From a virus: 40,869 bases of DNA. This document shows, piece by piece, positions 32,171-40,526 of the stretch; position 1 is the stretch's first letter; the number at the start of each line of letters is the position of its first letter. A program made the position numbers and the translations under genes. Below the pieces are notes generated by a model. It searched no databases. It saw only the letters and a list, made by a program, of their open reading frames with translations, and had not been told where the DNA came from. The DNA lies in IMG/VR virus record IMGVR_UViG_3300045988_007604, positions 1 to 40,869 of that record, one strand, 5' to 3'.

Positions 32171-32308
32171 CCGCCGGTAACGCCGTGTGTCCCTTGCCGG
32201 TTGCAATATCACCATAGCATTTTCAGCCAGAGAAAGTAAACCACACATCTGATTCCACCGCAATCAAATGTGCACAATCCAATATCAAATTTAATAGGAG
32301 GGCGAATT

Positions 32309-33031
32309 ATGGATTCAAATACAGGCCAAACATTCATCGAGGAAATGCAGCCGAATTTCGATGCCCTCCCGGAAAGGCTGAAAGACGAGAAATTCAGGAA
32401 TCATCTGACGAACCAGCAGCTTTCTGACGTGTCCGGCGTTCCCATCGCCACCACAAGCCGGATTCTTTCCGGTGCCGTATCGAACCCCGGCTTTTTCCAT
32501 ATCGCCGCGCTGTGCGCCGCTATGGACGTGTCAATGGATTCCGTTGCAGGTGTTCACCCAAGCGGAGATCAGGCGGAAATAGACCAGCTCCGGCAGGAGA
32601 TAGCATACAAGGACGAGATAATTGCCGAGAAGGGCGCGGCGATAGACCGCCTACTGGACAGGAGCCGCATTATGGAGGCTGGTGTCGCGGCCAGAGATGA
32701 CCGCATCAGCAAGCAAAGCGAAGCCCTTTCTAAAAAAGACAGTGCGCTTGCATCCGTGCAAAGGGAAAATAAGCCCTTGATTTACGGGCAGTGCGCATTA
32801 AACATTCTGCTGACGGCGGTACTCATGATCTATATGGTGCTGGACGCCCGGAACCCGGAAATGGGGCTAATTCGCTCCGAAAAGATTTCTGCGGTAATTT
32901 TAGTTGGCGCGGCAGGAATCGCCGCCGTTTTTATGCTCACGGCATTTTTGATTTTCCACAAGCTATTAAGTGGAGGTGAACGGGATGGCAAAAAGAAAGA
33001 AGGAGCCGGAAATCAGGCTCCCAAAAATTAA
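32309..33031 (+). CDS. Membrane-anchored XRE-type HTH protein (HTH + coiled coil + two TM helices)
   Basis: 240 aa from ATG 32309 (RBS AGGAGGGCGAATT). HTH LTNQQLSDVSGVPIATTSRILSG, coiled coil DQLRQEIAYKDEIIAEKGAAIDRLL, TM segments ALNILLTAVLMIYMVL and AVILVGAAGIAAVFMLTAFLIF. Overlaps the int start. Confidence 0.7.
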   Translation: MDSNTGQTFIEEMQPNFDALPERLKDEKFRNHLTNQQLSDVSGVPIATTSRILSGAVSNPGFFHIAALCAAMDVSMDSVAGVHPSGDQAEIDQLRQEIAYKDEIIAEKGAAIDRLLDRSRIMEAGVAARDDRISKQSEALSKKDSALASVQRENKPLIYGQCALNILLTAVLMIYMVLDARNPEMGLIRSEKISAVILVGAAGIAAVFMLTAFLIFHKLLSGGERDGKKKEGAGNQAPKN

Positions 33032-34085
33032 GCAGCTCCCATCCGGGGCGTGGCACACACGTGTATTGATAGAGAATCGCCGCGTATCCATTACGAAAGA
33101 TACATATGATGAATGCGTGGCCGAATATCTGGCCTTGAAAAACGGCCTTGTGGAAATCCGCGAGAAGAAAGACGGGAAAGACATCACGCTAGAGGAAGCC
33201 GCCAAAAGCTACATTGCATCGAAAGAGGGCTTTCTCTCCCCATCCACCATTGCCGGGTACGAGAAGTTCAAGCGGAATATGCTGCCAGGCATGATGAAGC
33301 GGAACATTTTCACAGTCTCCAATGACCAATGGCAGGCCGCTATCAGGCAGGAACACAAGGCCGGGAAATCCCCGAAGTATATCAAAAATGGGTGGATGTT
33401 CTTTTCCGCCTGCATCGTCGCCGCCGGTGCTCCGCGCCCGGAGGTGATGCTGTATCCCCCGGAACACAACGAACGGGCATACCTCACGCCGGACGAGATA
33501 GATAAGTTTGTGGAGGCTATAAAAGGCCACCGATTTGAAATCCCGTATCTGATGTGCCTTTCCTCCCTGCGCCGTTCGGAAATGATCGCCATGGACTGGG
33601 CAAACATAGATCTGGAAAACAAAGTGATGCACGTTCGCGGCGCAATCGTCATGGGGACGGCTGGGCTTGTGCAGAAGCCACAAAACAAAACGGCGAAGTC
33701 CCGCCGCTCTGTGCCTATCATTCCGCCGCTTCTGGAAGCGCTGAAAGCGCAGGAGCAGAAGACCGGAAACGTGGTAAAGGCAAGCGCAGAAACCATCTAC
33801 AATAATTTGGGCAAAGTCTGCGCCGCCGCTGGAATCACCGTGGTTGATCTGCATGGGCTGCGCCACAGCTTTGCATCTCTGGCCTACCACTTGCAAATTC
33901 CGGAAATGATCGCCGCCGAAATCGGCGGGTGGAGTGACTTGTCTACCATGCACAATATCTACACGCACCTCGCCCAGAAAGATATTGCCAAACGCTCAAG
34001 CGACTTCTGCGACTACTTCACCGCCGAAGCGATGAAAAAGCGCAAATTGGCAACGGAATTGGAAACGAAAAATAAAAGTTACTAG
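32985..34085 (+). CDS. int: Tyrosine recombinase / phage integrase
   Basis: 366 aa from ATG 32985 (RBS GGAGGTGAACGGG). Catalytic-domain motifs LSSLRRSE (Arg), HGLRHSFASL (H-x-x-R) and MHNIYTHL (Tyr). Directly followed by the tRNA-fragment attP. Confidence 0.9.
   Translation: MAKRKKEPEIRLPKIKQLPSGAWHTRVLIENRRVSITKDTYDECVAEYLALKNGLVEIREKKDGKDITLEEAAKSYIASKEGFLSPSTIAGYEKFKRNMLPGMMKRNIFTVSNDQWQAAIRQEHKAGKSPKYIKNGWMFFSACIVAAGAPRPEVMLYPPEHNERAYLTPDEIDKFVEAIKGHRFEIPYLMCLSSLRRSEMIAMDWANIDLENKVMHVRGAIVMGTAGLVQKPQNKTAKSRRSVPIIPPLLEALKAQEQKTGNVVKASAETIYNNLGKVCAAAGITVVDLHGLRHSFASLAYHLQIPEMIAAEIGGWSDLSTMHNIYTHLAQKDIAKRSSDFCDYFTAEAMKKRKLATELETKNKSY
34041..34069 (+). repeat. Direct repeat copy 1 (two tandem ATTGG(C/A)AACG units) at the integrase 3' end, left of the attP core
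   Basis: cgcaaattggcaacggaattggaaacgaa. The first 17 nt are identical to 34281..34297, and the rest differs by one indel and one mismatch. Confidence 0.8.
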
Positions 34086-34114: not shown

Positions 34115-34141
34115 GGGGTTCGATTCCCCTCGGCTCCACCA
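34115..34141 (+). other. attP core: 3' end of a tRNA gene (T-arm + 3' acceptor strand + CCA)
   Basis: GGGGTTCGATTCCCCTCGGCTCCACCA has a T-loop TTCGATT flanked by GGGG/CCCC, then CGGCTCC, A and CCA. There is no 5' tRNA half upstream, which is integrase coding sequence. Immediately downstream of int. Confidence 0.75.
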
Positions 34142-34308: not shown

Positions 34309-34322
34309 GCCCGGGACTATCT

Positions 34323-34355
34323 AAAATAAAAGATGCACCTTTTGGCGCATCTTTT
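34323..34355 (-). terminator. Terminator (functional on both strands) at the end of the acidic-protein/HTH cassette
   Basis: Minus strand AAAAGATGCGCC-AAAA-GGTGCATCTTTT (12 bp including one G-U) followed by ATTTTAG. It starts right at the stop codon of the HTH gene. Confidence 0.7.
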
Positions 34356-34698
34356 ATTTTACGGGGGGATCAAATAGCCCCAAGCACTGCTGCATCAATA
34401 ATCTAGTATATAGCGGGCATTCTCGCACGCCCCGGCACCAGTCTTCCACAGTCCGGCGTGGGATGCAAAAGTGTTCTGCAAATGCTGCCTGTGTCATGCC
34501 CGCAGCGGAAACGATCTCCCGCACGGTACGGGTTGCGGCGGTATAGATGGCGCGCAGCTGATCCAACCGGTCGGGTGGAATGGGCGAATCTGGCGCATCG
34601 TCCCAGATGTCGGACAGGGACAGGCCGGACACGTAGGCGTCCGGGTCGGTGTAGGTTGCGCACTCCCGGGCGCAGGCGGCGAATTGGGTATCAGTCAT
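34354..34698 (-). CDS. HTH protein (C-terminal XRE-like HTH), Aca-like candidate autoregulator
   Basis: 114 aa from ATG 34698 (8-nt overlap ATGACTGA with the upstream gene). HTH MTQAAFAEHFCIPRRTVEDWCRGVRECPLYTRLLM. The ORF-track extension was trimmed. Confidence 0.65.
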   Translation of the reverse strand: MTDTQFAACARECATYTDPDAYVSGLSLSDIWDDAPDSPIPPDRLDQLRAIYTAATRTVREIVSAAGMTQAAFAEHFCIPRRTVEDWCRGVRECPLYTRLLMQQCLGLFDPPVK

Positions 34699-34996
34699 TG
34701 CCGTCGCCCTCATCGATCTTTTCTTCATGTGCCAACGCGGCTTCGCAGTATTCACCCCACAGCCTGTCGCACGTGGCGTCGAACCACTCGGCGAATTCGG
34801 TGTCGTCCATGCCTGGATCAAAATCGATCGGGCCGACGACCTCGGAAAACTCCGGGTGCCAGTCCAGGCCGATGCGGACGATCTCGTCGGCCAATTTCTC
34901 CACGAACGCATCCCTGTCGTGTTCCGACAGAAAATCGAGCTCGTTGATTCGAATATCACCATATTCAGCAGACTTAAAAAATACCTTGTACGTCAT
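34691..34996 (-). CDS. Highly acidic 101-aa protein (candidate DNA mimic / anti-defence protein)
   Basis: Counted 29 Asp+Glu versus 8 Lys+Arg. RBS GGGGAAGGGG. First gene behind a consensus promoter that carries an operator palindrome. Confidence 0.6.
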   Translation of the reverse strand: MTYKVFFKSAEYGDIRINELDFLSEHDRDAFVEKLADEIVRIGLDWHPEFSEVVGPIDFDPGMDDTEFAEWFDATCDRLWGEYCEAALAHEEKIDEGDGND

Positions 34997-35083
34997 TTTT
35001 ATACCCCTTCCCCCTGGGCTGCGGCCCAGGTAAAACCATTGTTTTAATTAGTGCTTATCGGGGTGTACCCCTTAAGCGCCTTT

Positions 35084-35112
35084 ACTATACCACGCAATGC
35101 GTGGGATGTCAA
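35084..35112 (-). promoter_or_regulatory. Consensus promoter TTGACA-17-TATAGT with a 15-bp perfect palindrome (CCACGCAATGCGTGG) in the spacer
   Basis: The minus strand reads TTGACA (35112..35107), spacer 35106..35090, TATAGT (35089..35084). The palindrome spans 35090..35104. About 80-nt leader with GC hairpin CCTGGGC-TGCG-GCCCAGG (35013..35030) before the RBS. Confidence 0.7.
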
Positions 35113-35161
35113 GGGGAAAAATGAAAAAAGTTTATATTCTTTTGAAAAAATTAAGCCGAAT

Positions 35162-35190
35162 AAAGGGAGCGCCTGAAAGCGCTCCCTTTT
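35162..35190. terminator. Bidirectional terminator closing the cargo operon
   Basis: AAAGGGAGCGC-CTGAAA-GCGCTCCCTTT. T runs follow on both strands (plus TTTTG, minus TTTATT). Confidence 0.75.
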
Positions 35191-36384: not shown

Positions 36385-37185
36385 TTACGCTACGTTTCCG
36401 CAGCCGCAGCCGTAGCCGTTACCGTAGCAGCAGTTAGGATTCTGCACCTGATAAGCGGGAACCGGGCGGGGATTGTAGTACGCGAACTGGTTCTCCACAT
36501 AGCCCTTGATCGTCAGGTTCTGGGCATTCTGGCTCGCCGCCAGCTGCGCCATGAACAGTTGCTGATTCTGATCGGCGATTTTCTGATCCTTTGCCGCCAG
36601 CTCCTGTGCGGTAAGCCGCTGGTCGATGGAGCGGAAACCACAGTTCATAGCGTCGATGATATCCCGGGTGGTGTTCTGTACCGTGTTCCGGGTTTCGCAG
36701 CTCTGGGTAGCCAGATTGTAGTTCACGCCCTGAATAGCGGCGCGGTTTTCGCAGCAGCACTCCTGATTTGCCATCTGCATCTGGAAAAGCTGCTGCATCA
36801 AGGCAGCCTGCTGATTGCACCGGGAAAGCTCTGCCGCCTGGAAACCGTTGCTGATATTCTGGTTCACGCCTGCAAACCCATTCAGCATACCGGTATTCAT
36901 GGCGTAGAAGCCGTCGCAGACACCGTTGTTCACGCTGTCAATTTTCCGCTCGATGTTGGAAAAATCAGACGCGAGAACATACCCGTCCACCACGCCAGCG
37001 CCGGAACCACGACCGCCAAAGCCTCCGCCCCAGCCGTTACCGCCCCAGCCAAAGAAGCCGAAGATCAGGAAAATGATGATCCATGCAGACCAATCACCGC
37101 CCCAGCCTCCGCCATAGCCGCCGTTGTTGCCATCGGTGACAGCTCTGATATCGGCGGGGGTCATTTCGCTTGCTGTAATACTCAT
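36385..37185 (-). CDS. Hypothetical membrane protein (266 aa): Gly/Trp-rich TM N-terminus, Gln/Asn-rich coiled-coil body with Cys clusters, CCYGNGYGCGCGN tail
   Basis: RBS GAAAGGAGAACAAA. N-terminal GGYGGGWGGDWSAWIIIFLIFGFFGWGGNGWGGGFGG resembles YjcZ-type tiny Gly-rich TM sporulation peptides. Internal CCC and C-terminal CC..C.C. Confidence 0.55.
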   Translation of the reverse strand: MSITASEMTPADIRAVTDGNNGGYGGGWGGDWSAWIIIFLIFGFFGWGGNGWGGGFGGRGSGAGVVDGYVLASDFSNIERKIDSVNNGVCDGFYAMNTGMLNGFAGVNQNISNGFQAAELSRCNQQAALMQQLFQMQMANQECCCENRAAIQGVNYNLATQSCETRNTVQNTTRDIIDAMNCGFRSIDQRLTAQELAAKDQKIADQNQQLFMAQLAASQNAQNLTIKGYVENQFAYYNPRPVPAYQVQNPNCCYGNGYGCGCGNVA

Positions 37186-37239
37186 TTTGTTCTCCTTTCA
37201 AAAGATGAAAAATATAACAAAATCTGGCCAGATTATTGT

Positions 37240-37452
37240 TTACCTTCTAGGCGCTCCGAAGCCGAACATGCCCCGGAATTGCTCAAACTGCCCCTGCATC
37301 TGCTGTGCCATTTGCTGGGCTTGGTTAAGCTGCTGCTGGTTTACACGCCCGCTCTGTACAAGCTGATTAAGCAGTTGCTGCGGGTCTTGCCCCCTCATCT
37401 GCTGCATAAATTGGGGGAATTGGGAAATCATCTGCATAGGATTAGGCGTCAT
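37240..37452 (-). CDS. Gln-rich small protein (70 aa)
   Basis: Counted 21 Gln in 70 residues (QFPQFMQQMRGQDPQQLLNQLVQSGRVNQQQLNQAQQMAQQMQGQFEQF). The start overlaps the upstream gene by 11 nt. Confidence 0.6.
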   Translation of the reverse strand: MTPNPMQMISQFPQFMQQMRGQDPQQLLNQLVQSGRVNQQQLNQAQQMAQQMQGQFEQFRGMFGFGAPRR

Positions 37453-37864
37453 TGCGTTTTACCTCCGCTTTCTTGGCATCGCGTTTTCCATCCGTCAGCT
37501 GATTCAGCCGTTCCTCTACAGCGGAAAGCCGCTGCTCAAATCCCGCACTGACTGCCTCCGGGGTAGCTCCTGCGTCCCGGATTTTGTATTCATACGCTAC
37601 AATTGGCATTGGTCGCCCTTGCGCGTCTGTCCGCTTTTCGTAGAATACAGGCTTGTTGCTGTCCCAGAGCCGCACAAATCCGTTTGCCGTGACGATAAAC
37701 GCCTCCGCCGCAGATTCCGAAGCTACCCAAATTCGGTCATCAAGGGGCGGCTGTTGGGGTTGTGCGGGTATCTGCGGTTGCCCGATTGGCATTTGCGGCT
37801 GGAAATAGTTGGGCTGAAAATAGCCGGATTGGTAGTTGGGCTGCATATAAGGGTTTGCCATCAT
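37442..37864 (-). CDS. Hypothetical protein (140 aa) with Pro/Gln/Tyr/Asn-rich N-terminus and a small globular domain
   Basis: N-terminus MMANPYMQPNYQSGYFQPNYFQPQMPIGQPQIPAQPQQPP, then IWVASESAAEAFIVTANGFVRLWDSNKPVFYEK. ATGA overlap with the upstream gene. Confidence 0.6.
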   Translation of the reverse strand: MMANPYMQPNYQSGYFQPNYFQPQMPIGQPQIPAQPQQPPLDDRIWVASESAAEAFIVTANGFVRLWDSNKPVFYEKRTDAQGRPMPIVAYEYKIRDAGATPEAVSAGFEQRLSAVEERLNQLTDGKRDAKKAEVKRNDA

Positions 37865-38584: not shown

Positions 38585-38842
38585 TCAGTCCTCCTTGGGA
38601 GAAATGTAAGTTCTTGCCTGTTTGCTGTCAGCGATACCGGCGGTGGTAGGATCATTGACCACGCCCAGGATCACCAGCAGGGCAAACACGGCGTTCACCA
38701 CGGCCAGCAGCTTGTCGCCGATCTCGCCCAAGTCCAGCGTAAAGCCGAACAGGGCGGCTACCGTCTGCACCAGCAGAAGCAGCGCGGGAATCGCGGCCAG
38801 CCAGAAGTTCTTGTTCTTGATGCGTACGATCCAGTTAATCAT
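38585..38842 (-). CDS. Holin (phiLC3-type)
   Basis: 85 aa from ATG 38842 (RBS GGAGGAAAACAAA). MINWIVRIKNKNFWLAAIPALLLLVQTVAALFG is the characteristic N-terminus. A second TM is AVFALLVILGVV. Confidence 0.75.
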   Translation of the reverse strand: MINWIVRIKNKNFWLAAIPALLLLVQTVAALFGFTLDLGEIGDKLLAVVNAVFALLVILGVVNDPTTAGIADSKQARTYISPKED

Positions 38843-38855
38843 TTTGTTTTCCTCC

Positions 38856-39128
38856 TTATTCTTCCACAATTTTCCGATTTGTGGATTTGATGTAGAAGTC
38901 CTCGTAGAGTTCCTGCTTGTCTCCGTTGTATGTATATTCCACATACACACCATCACCGGAAACGGTAGTCGAAAGCAACGCTTTGTAGTTCTGCAACGTC
39001 TTGCACGCCCAAACTACAAATACATTGCTGAGGTCGATTTGCGTGGATTCTCCCATTATAACATTATAATGCTCCACGAGCTTTCGCTTGCACACGCTCT
39101 GAAAGTGATCCATTCCTGTGATAATCAT
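38856..39128 (-). CDS. Hypothetical protein (90 aa) inside the lysis cassette
   Basis: RBS AAGGAGGAAAACAAAAA. No motif recognized and no TM segment. Confidence 0.55.
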   Translation of the reverse strand: MIITGMDHFQSVCKRKLVEHYNVIMGESTQIDLSNVFVVWACKTLQNYKALLSTTVSGDGVYVEYTYNGDKQELYEDFYIKSTNRKIVEE

Positions 39129-39465: not shown

Positions 39466-40080
39466 TCAGCCGTTCCACCGGCTGTATTTTCCGTTGTCCT
39501 CATGAATGCCCCAGCTGTACAGCCCCAGACCGCCCCGCCCGGGGATTTTCTCGGCCTGCACCTCCTGGGCTATGGCATAAAGCTTCTCCGGGGAGATAGC
39601 CCCTGAGAGGTCTGCGGCCTGCCCCGTGGTGTGCAGGGAGTTGGATACCCCGCCCACCTCGGCATTGTGCCGCTTGCACCTCACCCCGGAATTCACATTC
39701 AGGGGAACCCCAGCCCGACGGCGTATCTCATCGGCCATGCGGACGGTTTCCTCTGCGGGCTCTGCGGGGAAGCCGTTGCAGTATTTCCCGCCGCACTGGC
39801 ACCGGAATTCCTCCCGGGTGAAATACTCGATATCATCCCAGAACGTCCCGGTCTTTGGCGCTGTGCTGTCCTCCGGCTTTTCCACCTTTACCGCCGTCCC
39901 GGCAATGGCACCGATGAGCATTTTCTGGGTAGCCGCACCCGGTATCCCATCCACGGTAAGCCCGTAGTCCGCCTGAAACACCCGGACAGCTCCCTGGGTG
40001 TTCCTGCCCTCAATGCCGTCAATCGAGCCGGGAGAATAGCCCAGATAGGTCAACAGGCATTGGATTTGCTTTACCGTCAT
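39466..40080 (-). CDS. Endolysin: N-terminal peptidoglycan-binding domain + C-terminal peptidase M15-type (zinc D-Ala-D-Ala carboxypeptidase-like) domain
   Basis: 204 aa from ATG 40080. The PG_binding_1 pattern is LLTYLGYSPGSIDGIEGRNTQGAVRVFQADYGLTVDGIPG. The M15 pattern is FRCQCGG...SGVRC..HN..VGG...SLHTTGQAADL. Confidence 0.85.
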   Translation of the reverse strand: MTVKQIQCLLTYLGYSPGSIDGIEGRNTQGAVRVFQADYGLTVDGIPGAATQKMLIGAIAGTAVKVEKPEDSTAPKTGTFWDDIEYFTREEFRCQCGGKYCNGFPAEPAEETVRMADEIRRRAGVPLNVNSGVRCKRHNAEVGGVSNSLHTTGQAADLSGAISPEKLYAIAQEVQAEKIPGRGGLGLYSWGIHEDNGKYSRWNG

Positions 40081-40526
40081 ACGTTCACCTCTTCCCAGCC
40101 CTGGGGGTATGCGGACGGCGACCATACATTATTGTCCAACGTGGAGCGGTACACTTTACCGCCCTCCGCGCAGCAGTCTCCCTTATTATAGGGGCTGGTG
40201 GACATGGCGACGAATGGCAACGCTTTTGCTGGATCGGTGCTCCAAGCAAACCCCCACTGTGCAGGAAGTTCCTCTGGCTCCTGGGTGTAGATAGTGCTGT
40301 CATAGGGCTGCACTAGCCGCACCACACGGCCAGCAGACGATTGGCACACAAACCCGGCCTTGCGCTCCAGCATGTTTTTGTTTGCGACAGCAGCCTTGAA
40401 ACTGGGAATGTCGCTATCCGTCGCGTACAGTTCGGTGCCTGTCATGTCCGGGGCTTTCTCCTGCAAGGCAAGCGCGTTCGCCCGCCCCTGGGCATACATG
40501 ATGCTTTTTCTTTCCTCTTGTGTCAC
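40077..40526 (-). CDS. Hypothetical protein (149 aa) with CBM5/12-like C-terminal motif
   Basis: GTG 40526 start (GTGA overlap with the upstream mini-ORF). The C-terminal YNKGDCCAEGGKVYRSTLDNNVWSPSAYPQGWEEV fits the Y.aGd.V...G.vY......WsP....W pattern of CBM5/12 modules. Confidence 0.55.
   Translation of the reverse strand: MTQEERKSIMYAQGRANALALQEKAPDMTGTELYATDSDIPSFKAAVANKNMLERKAGFVCQSSAGRVVRLVQPYDSTIYTQEPEELPAQWGFAWSTDPAKALPFVAMSTSPYNKGDCCAEGGKVYRSTLDNNVWSPSAYPQGWEEVNV

Follow-up and report, generated by a model that had tools for sequence, protein, structure and literature searches.

The 40,869-nt stretch of viral DNA analysed here (the window; IMG/VR record IMGVR_UViG_3300045988_007604, positions 1-40,869, with the coordinates below referring to this stretch) looks like a complete temperate phage of human-gut Oscillospiraceae-like Clostridia. 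Beside its phage attachment site (attP) lies a minus-strand cassette (34322-35190) in which a near-consensus promoter with a palindromic operator precedes a gene for a very acidic protein (gene 1) and a gene for a helix-turn-helix (HTH) protein (gene 2). The cassette is probably a self-contained, autoregulated anti-defence operon of the type in which anti-CRISPR (acr) genes are joined to a gene for an anti-CRISPR-associated (Aca) regulator. The regulatory half of this model, to which the comparative evidence speaks, is very likely right, and the anti-defence role of gene 1 itself, assigned by association, is a close call that tips slightly in its favour. The kind of system is already known, and is built here from an undescribed HTH family and a new orphan protein.

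A first-pass annotation, made from the letters alone, had recognised an acr-aca architecture in a TTGACA-17-TATAGT promoter whose spacer holds a 15-bp palindrome, two genes with an 8-nt overlap, a C-terminal XRE-like HTH, terminators on both sides and a location next to attP, and each of these elements was found again (Table 1). The promoter matches the sigma-70 consensus at 11 of 12 positions and ranks first among four promoter-like sites within 1.8 kb. The palindrome covers 15 of the 17 spacer bases, and its right arm provides the TG of the extended -10 element. The centres of its outer CCAC/GTGG tetranucleotides lie about 11 bp, or about one helical turn, from each other, a spacing that would suit a dimer bound to one face of the helix. 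The two genes overlap at ATGACTGA, and both are under purifying selection when compared with their relatives (dN/dS, the ratio of non-synonymous to synonymous substitution rates, of 0.12-0.39, and of 0.12-0.29 for gene 1). The palindrome is single-copy in the window, where other matches carry three mismatches each, the level expected by chance, and gene 2 therefore appears to be a dedicated autoregulator in this phage.

This single copy bears on an alternative in which the HTH protein would regulate the phage life cycle at large, as a factor of the Cro or antirepressor-control type, with gene 1 as a co-factor in the lysis-lysogeny circuitry. The nearness of the integrase and a putative repressor block (28.8-34.1 kb), and the name 'Regulatory protein' that one source gives to a gene 2 homologue, would fit such a role. 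We consider it very improbable, since the phage genome has a single copy of the operator, which lies in the promoter of the cassette itself, and terminators insulate the cassette from its surroundings. The same HTH and promoter also turn up in non-phage contexts, next to an ArdA-domain protein, a Pycsar system and an NTPase gene, and within phages the HTH accompanies either tyrosine or serine integrases, so that it is not tied to one lysogeny module.

The main comparative evidence comes from 33 loci that encode relatives of gene 2 (referred to by L numbers where they have to be told apart). A sigma-70 promoter matching the consensus at 10-12 of 12 positions lies 190-1660 bp upstream of the HTH gene in 29 of the 33, with a palindrome of the type (C)CACNNA-N-TNNGTG(G) in its spacer (variants CCACGCAWTGCGTGG, CCACGGAATCCGTGG, CCACCCAWTGAGTGG and TCACCCAATGGGTGA). 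Because it recurs so widely, this arrangement is not a product of chance. The four loci without the promoter are truncated or are the most distant matches, four further lineages fetched later show the same arrangement, and several loci carry a second copy of the palindrome immediately 5' of the -35 hexamer. The operons of the relatives have the HTH gene at or near their end, after one to five or more genes per locus. Syntenic phages share the upstream genes for proteins of 144, 127 and 110 amino acids (aa) at 64-99% identity, and most of them also have the downstream integrase (L001, L003, L007, L010, L018), but their cargo is unrelated. The first ~30 nt of the leader (aaagacacttaaggg..ccc..aaaggagat) are likewise kept across cassettes with unrelated cargo. 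Since the cargo is swapped while the promoter and the HTH stay, the conserved unit is the promoter, operator, leader and HTH gene, and the cargo is a swappable insert.

A census of this cargo, drawn from about 30 loci, gives 55 proteins in 40 sequence clusters. They are mostly small, soluble and acidic (median length 98 aa, median net charge -6.5), and almost none matches Pfam, PHROGs or NCBIfam. Gene 1 behaves as part of the same mobile cargo. Its homologues are found with other HTH sub-lineages and operator variants (L155, L159, L160), and in L156 and L161 a homologue stands under a different spacer palindrome (ATGGGATATCCCAT) with no HTH of the gene 2 family. The two proteins, which the first-pass annotation had proposed as a possible new anti-defence pair, are thus not co-evolving partners.

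The mobility of gene 1 also decides against a type II toxin-antitoxin module of the HigBA/Xre kind, in which gene 1 would be the toxin and gene 2 an antitoxin with a neutralising N-terminal domain and an HTH that represses the operon. Gene order, overlap and promoter palindrome are indeed reminiscent of HigBA-type modules, Xre antitoxins and HigA2 are among the top Foldseek matches of the HTH, and a distant HTH homologue precedes a Fic gene in L029. Against this, gene 1 is extremely acidic (isoelectric point, pI, about 4.1) and resembles no toxin in fold or family, a conserved HTH is preceded by unrelated partners that vary in number from one to five, and the occurrence of gene 1 homologues with other HTH sub-lineages, or without an HTH of the gene 2 family, is incompatible with a cognate pair. 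A toxin-antitoxin module, already disfavoured on these grounds, is extremely improbable. The first-pass annotation had held that homologues forming a conventional toxin-antitoxin pair would overturn an anti-defence reading; in the homologues the partners are variable and gene 1 also occurs without this HTH, so that no conventional pair is seen.

A known anti-CRISPR is present among the cargo. Experiments have validated AcrIC5 as an inhibitor of type I-C systems; it has orthologues in Firmicutes and is active against an I-C system of gut Eggerthella (PMC7913775). Look-ups from the HTH homologue P0057 (68% identity) led to cassettes (L163-L171) that hold a full-length AcrIC5 (PF22147) gene of 75 aa, which in L163 (1767-1994) matches the family with an E-value (E) of 2.9e-23 and 82 bits against a cut-off of 27. 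The AcrIC5 cassettes of the P0057 type have the spacer palindrome GCACGC-N3-GCGTGC and the same conserved leader. In L158, a 69-aa AcrIC5 homologue (2276-2485; E 6e-17, 62 bits) is separated by 75 nt from a gene 1 homologue downstream of it (98% identical over 86 aa), within an operon whose palindrome is identical to that of the window and whose HTH gene is last. In acr-aca systems the partners recombine freely, and a regulator and a validated Acr in one operon form the guilt-by-association criterion of AcaFinder (PMC9765179). Such a co-occurrence with AcrIC5 is found in the relatives and not in the window.

A further, weak candidate for AcrIC5 (L008:4341-4742) was rejected as spurious, with an E of 5.5e-4 that falls below the cut-off and 140+ homologues without a precomputed Pfam match; the strong matches in L163 and L158 do not depend on it. 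The L163 cassette also contains a second promoter (2836-2864, 12/12; also in L166, L168 and L170), which has no palindrome, at a distance of 165 nt upstream from the HTH gene; the regulator of these cassettes may thus be expressed separately and without repression.

The cargo is also where the anti-defence reading meets the view that the cassette is an autoregulated moron with some other payload, for host takeover, lysogenic conversion, superinfection exclusion or inhibition of a host nucleoid protein or transcription factor. A promoter and terminators of its own, placed between conserved genes beside attP, are classic moron anatomy; gene 1 matches no anti-defence family; and the cargo is heterogeneous, with zinc-ribbon, HNH-like and HTH_23 proteins and a Fic protein. 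However, AcrIC5 homologues are cargo of the same cassette family, with one of them immediately next to a gene 1 homologue; most cargo proteins are small, soluble and acidic, and like acr genes the cargo is shuffled between regulators (PMC9765179); and the cassette adjoins an ArdA-domain protein in L174. We judge a payload unrelated to defence to be unlikely.

Operator symmetry is maintained by compensatory changes on both arms. In an alignment of 26 promoters, 92.7% of cells are complementary across the dyad, compared with 79.5% in 500 shuffles of the alignment and 24-47% in slid controls. Both arms change at six of the seven operator positions, and the observed values were reached by 0 of the 500 shuffles. 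The operator also covaries with the protein. Across the related loci, the residue before the invariant Trp of the recognition helix (Asp86 in gene 2, ..RTVEDWC..) tracks the fourth base of the half-site CAC[N]. Asp occurs with G at 16 of 16 loci, and again out of sample in the four later-fetched lineages; Asn occurs with C (8 of 8); Ala is found with A at a single locus, where the HTH shares 83% identity with an Asp/G protein; and Arg accompanies a rearranged half-site. The Asn-type proteins are each nearest to Asp-type proteins from different sub-lineages, a pattern that points to several independent switches. Tracking of this kind is the pattern that would be expected if the residue contacts the base directly.

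The AlphaFold2 model of gene 2 has seven helices (predicted local distance difference test, pLDDT, 94.6) and contains a five-helix, XRE-like DNA-binding fold in the C-terminal half. Its top Foldseek matches are XRE regulators, including Xre antitoxins, HigA2, C.Esp1396I and ImmR, with Aca1 lower down, although these are generic matches (target-normalised template-modelling score, TM, 0.55-0.69; root-mean-square deviation 1.5-2.3 Å over ~50 residues; E >0.2). The family profile matches the PDB entry 2ppx at E 0.016. Pfam matches to HTH_28, HTH_3 and Xre-like families are all below threshold, and the protein falls in phrog_25567, of function unknown. Among Acas with PDB entries, to which the comparison extended, Aca1 (7c0g/7vjm) gives only a generic XRE-fold match to the model (TM 0.56, E 2.4). 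The HTH family counts as undescribed because it has no Pfam family above threshold, an unknown-function PHROG and no match to Acas with solved structures; the earlier statement that neither protein belongs to a recognisable Acr or Aca family stands for gene 1, which has no match, and for gene 2 as far as Acas with PDB entries are concerned. The N-terminal ~50 residues match nothing, yet contain the invariant residues C9, Y16, Y22, S24, W32 and D34.

The gene 2 family comprises more than 150 protein clusters from Oscillospiraceae-type gut phages and mobile elements, and the sources of the relatives are human-gut viromes and metagenome-assembled genomes (MAGs) of Dysosmobacter, Oscillospiraceae, Lachnospiraceae and Clostridia. 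Among annotated GenBank phages, relatives are limited to five unannotated faecal phage contigs, all below 50% identity. In six loci (L015, L016, L017, L019, L020, L023) additional N-terminal domains are joined to the HTH module and the proteins are 138-243 aa long; the extension in L023 exists as a separate 122-aa gene in L158.

Gene 1 belongs to a tiny orphan family that has no relative detectable by fold or sequence. A word-indexed search and an exhaustive HMMER profile search of 1.84 billion representatives found only eight relatives, all close. There is no match in Pfam (none at E<=1, including AcrIC5), PHROGs or NCBIfam, and the sequence profile finds nothing in the PDB, including Ocr, ArdA or a solved Acr. 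The AlphaFold2 model, of moderate confidence (pLDDT 73), consists of a strand, two helices, two strands and a long helix, and has no Foldseek match in the PDB or BFVD (best E 0.7-2.6). The first-pass annotation had suggested a DNA mimic. The charge count on which it relied is correct (29 of 101 residues are acidic, a negative charge density like that of Ocr and ArdA), but the structural side finds no support, with no Foldseek or sequence similarity to Ocr, ArdA or a solved Acr. The C-terminal acidic tail, which holds part of the negative charge, is not conserved. DNA mimicry is thus neither supported nor excluded. AcrIC5 resembles gene 1 in being small and highly acidic and in being cargo of the same HTH family, beside a gene 1 homologue; gene 1 is nevertheless not a homologue of AcrIC5, and the predicted fold and the length differ.

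Known acr-aca operons (Aca1-Aca14; autorepression by Aca1 and Aca2; PMC6765145, PMC9410906, PMC13551039) share several traits with this cassette. Their promoters have consensus -35 and -10 hexamers with an inverted repeat (IR1) inside the core promoter (PMC9410906), as does the near-consensus, early-type promoter described here. The upstream genes are small, fast-evolving and often acidic, and are combined with a small HTH regulator gene that is usually downstream. Regulators and cargo recombine, and a validated Acr family is among the cargo. Occasional second inverted repeats and second regulated operons (as in L159) recall the control of several operons by Aca proteins (PMC13551039). In contrast to those operons, the gene 2 HTH has no detectable sequence kinship to Acas with solved structures and no Pfam family above threshold, a conserved N-terminal helical domain of ~50 residues without a match precedes it, the hosts are gut Oscillospiraceae-like Clostridia, and repression is something that we infer.

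Two other groups of autoregulators invite comparison. Restriction-modification (R-M) C proteins and Xre/HigA antitoxins share the XRE-type HTH fold (C.Esp1396I, HigA2, Xre antitoxins) and autoregulation through palindromes in their own promoters, but the operon here has no R-M genes or toxin and its partner genes vary. AcrIIA1, which is at once an anti-CRISPR and an autorepressor, has an N-terminal HTH and a C-terminal domain that inhibits Cas9; in gene 2 the HTH is C-terminal, and there is no sequence similarity. The relatives with extra N-terminal domains (L015, L017, L019, L023) recall Acr-Aca fusion proteins, and in Listeria prophages the AcrIIA1 locus is an anti-CRISPR locus autoregulated by its HTH protein (PMC9410906).

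Taken as an acr-aca-type operon, the cassette would work as follows. The near-consensus promoter, with its TG extended -10 element and A/T-rich upstream tract, would be fired by host RNA polymerase once the DNA enters the cell, and some low-level activity in the lysogen is also possible. A bicistronic mRNA would then yield the 101-aa acidic protein and the 114-aa HTH protein, the latter by translational coupling through the overlap. The HTH protein, presumably as a dimer, would bind the 15-bp spacer palindrome and occlude the -10 and extended -10 region, bringing the operon down to a low steady state. The acidic protein would be the payload, most likely a stoichiometric inhibitor of a host immune system. 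This system is possibly CRISPR-Cas, because the HTH family associates with AcrIC5.

Several points weigh against this reading. Operator binding, repression and anti-defence activity are all things that we infer. The window's own cassette holds no known Acr, and gene 1 belongs to no known Acr, anti-restriction or DNA-mimic family by sequence or fold, the latter judged on a model with a pLDDT of 73. The profile of the gene 2 family (25 members) finds no Aca at E<=1 among all PDB chains. The residue-base counts come from related sequences, which are not independent samples, and carry no formal statistic. Guilt by association is also imperfect, and not all cargo need be anti-defence: zinc-ribbon proteins, HNH-like proteins and extra HTH proteins are part of it, as is a Fic protein in a distant relative.

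The chances are about even, in our view, that gene 2 founds a new and widespread Aca family of human-gut Oscillospiraceae and Clostridia phages and conjugative elements, with an operator specificity that partly depends on one residue of the recognition helix (Asp reads G, Asn C and Ala A), and that this family frames a hypervariable anti-defence slot whose acidic protein and dozens of orphan cargo families are new-fold inhibitors of Clostridial immunity. Most anti-defence discovery has been anchored on regulators from Proteobacteria, Listeria and Streptococcus. To our knowledge, hardly any anti-defence proteins are known from phages of the dominant gut Clostridia, most of which are uncultured. 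Both the palindrome-bearing promoter and the HTH gene are easy to search for, and they offer two landmarks for mining anti-defence genes in these phages. They bracket the 40 small-protein clusters, including a validated anti-CRISPR family, and so could serve as an anchor for guilt by association. Such mining could reach modulators of CRISPR-Cas, and the acidic protein of the window heads the shortlist. The apparent Asp-G/Asn-C/Ala-A code is, in addition, a testable model of how repressors and operators diverge to insulate co-resident cassettes.

Table 1. Positions of the cassette elements and of the adjoining attachment site in the window
Feature	Position	Strand	Description
Upstream hairpin terminator	35162-35189	-	GGGAGCGC-loop-GCGCUCCC core, then U-rich tract; ends the preceding 110-aa gene
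A/T-rich tract 5' of the -35 hexamer	35113-35150	-	UP-element-like; runs such as 'ttttttcaaaag...ttttttcatttt'
Core promoter	35084-35112	-	TTGACA (35112-35107), 17-nt spacer, TATAGT (35089-35084), TG extended -10
Operator palindrome	35090-35104	.	CCACGCA-N-TGCGTGG; perfect, 15 bp, abuts the -10 hexamer
Predicted 5' leader	34997-35077	-	~80 nt; ribosome-binding site GGGGGAAGGGG at its end
Gene 1	34691-34996	-	101 aa; 29 D+E, 8 K+R; net charge -21; pI about 4.1
Gene 2	34354-34698	-	114 aa; N-terminal helical domain, residues ~1-50; C-terminal XRE-type HTH, ~55-105
Intrinsic terminator	34322-34356	-	13-bp stem, then UUUUAUUUU; overlaps the gene 2 stop codon; also inverted repeat I1
attP core	34115-34141	+	Identical to the 3' end of ssrA (transfer-messenger RNA, tmRNA); context, outside the cassette
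Arm-type direct repeats around the attP core	34041-34064/34281-34304 and 34093-34108/34240-34255		

The remaining control elements frame the operon. Both flanking terminators are hairpins followed by U-rich tracts, and both were found by folding; a simple terminator scan missed them, probably by extending the stems into the T-run. The fold that contains the upstream terminator has a free energy (dG) of -24.8 kcal/mol (z -4.3), and this terminator would shield the cassette from read-through of the late and accessory genes. The downstream terminator folds with a dG of -18.3 kcal/mol (z -6.75). The A/T runs upstream of the -35 hexamer keep their position in most related loci, and the tract may function as an UP element. 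The transcription start, and with it the start of the leader, is predicted from where the -10 hexamer lies. Only the window and L001 have an insertion of ~40 nt in the leader, which contains a hairpin (35013-35030). An RNA structure in the leader was sought by analogy with the RNA motifs of Aca2 and Aca1, and RNAalifold gives no consensus pairs despite the sequence conservation.

Some related loci are arranged differently around gene 1 homologues. In L156 and L161 (2562-3330), where the promoter is of consensus type, the homologue is last, preceded by open reading frames of 47 and 55 aa, one of which may be the regulator, and a similar promoter lies directly downstream. In L159 (2014-3900), a second promoter with the same operator type (CCACGGAATCCGTGG) follows the HTH gene and drives another cargo operon, which contains a gene 1 homologue and lacks a separate HTH gene.

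Other neighbours of the HTH gene recur. Basic proteins of 92-434 aa with multiple CxxC zinc-ribbon motifs adjoin it in nine loci (L008, L009, L014, L023, L026, L155, L158, L163, L188), usually encoded just upstream and, in L163, downstream. HNH/AP2-like proteins adjoin it in L002, L007 and L010. In L029 (3866-4834), a distant homologue (~40% identity) is the first gene behind its own palindrome-bearing promoter, followed by a Fic adenylyltransferase (NCBIfam NmFic, E 2e-92). Cassettes of this type are also found in non-phage contexts (L172-L179, the P0013 cassette). Beside the cassette, L174 encodes a divergent protein of 595 aa that combines ArdA, YodL and DUF4316 domains, L173 carries Pycsar genes (PycTM and a cyclase), and L172 an NB-ARC/nSTAND NTPase. 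The P0013-type cassette may sit in defence or anti-defence islands of conjugative elements.

Within the phage, the order runs from the endolysin gene (39466-40125) and the holin gene (38585-38956) through several genes of unknown function to the cassette, attP and a tyrosine-integrase-type gene (32970-34085) that adjoins attP. The cassette position is a variable slot between the lysis-side genes and attP, the classic slot for morons at a prophage end. The ssrA 3' ends that match the attP core include those of Oscillospiraceae, Faecousia and Eubacteriales MAGs. The direct repeats that flank the core are probably integrase arm sites, and one of them falls within the integrase gene, at its 3' end. 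The minus strand at 36385-37864, which separates the holin gene from the cassette, encodes a Gly/Cys-rich protein of 266 aa and Gln/Pro-rich proteins of 70 and 140 aa, all of unusual low-complexity composition and with matches only to PHROGs of unknown function. On the other side, a plus-strand gene (32270-33031) that overlaps the start of the integrase gene by ~60 nt encodes a 253-aa protein with an N-terminal HTH (a weak match to phrog_8) and C-terminal hydrophobic segments, which may be a membrane-anchored regulator of the lysogeny module.

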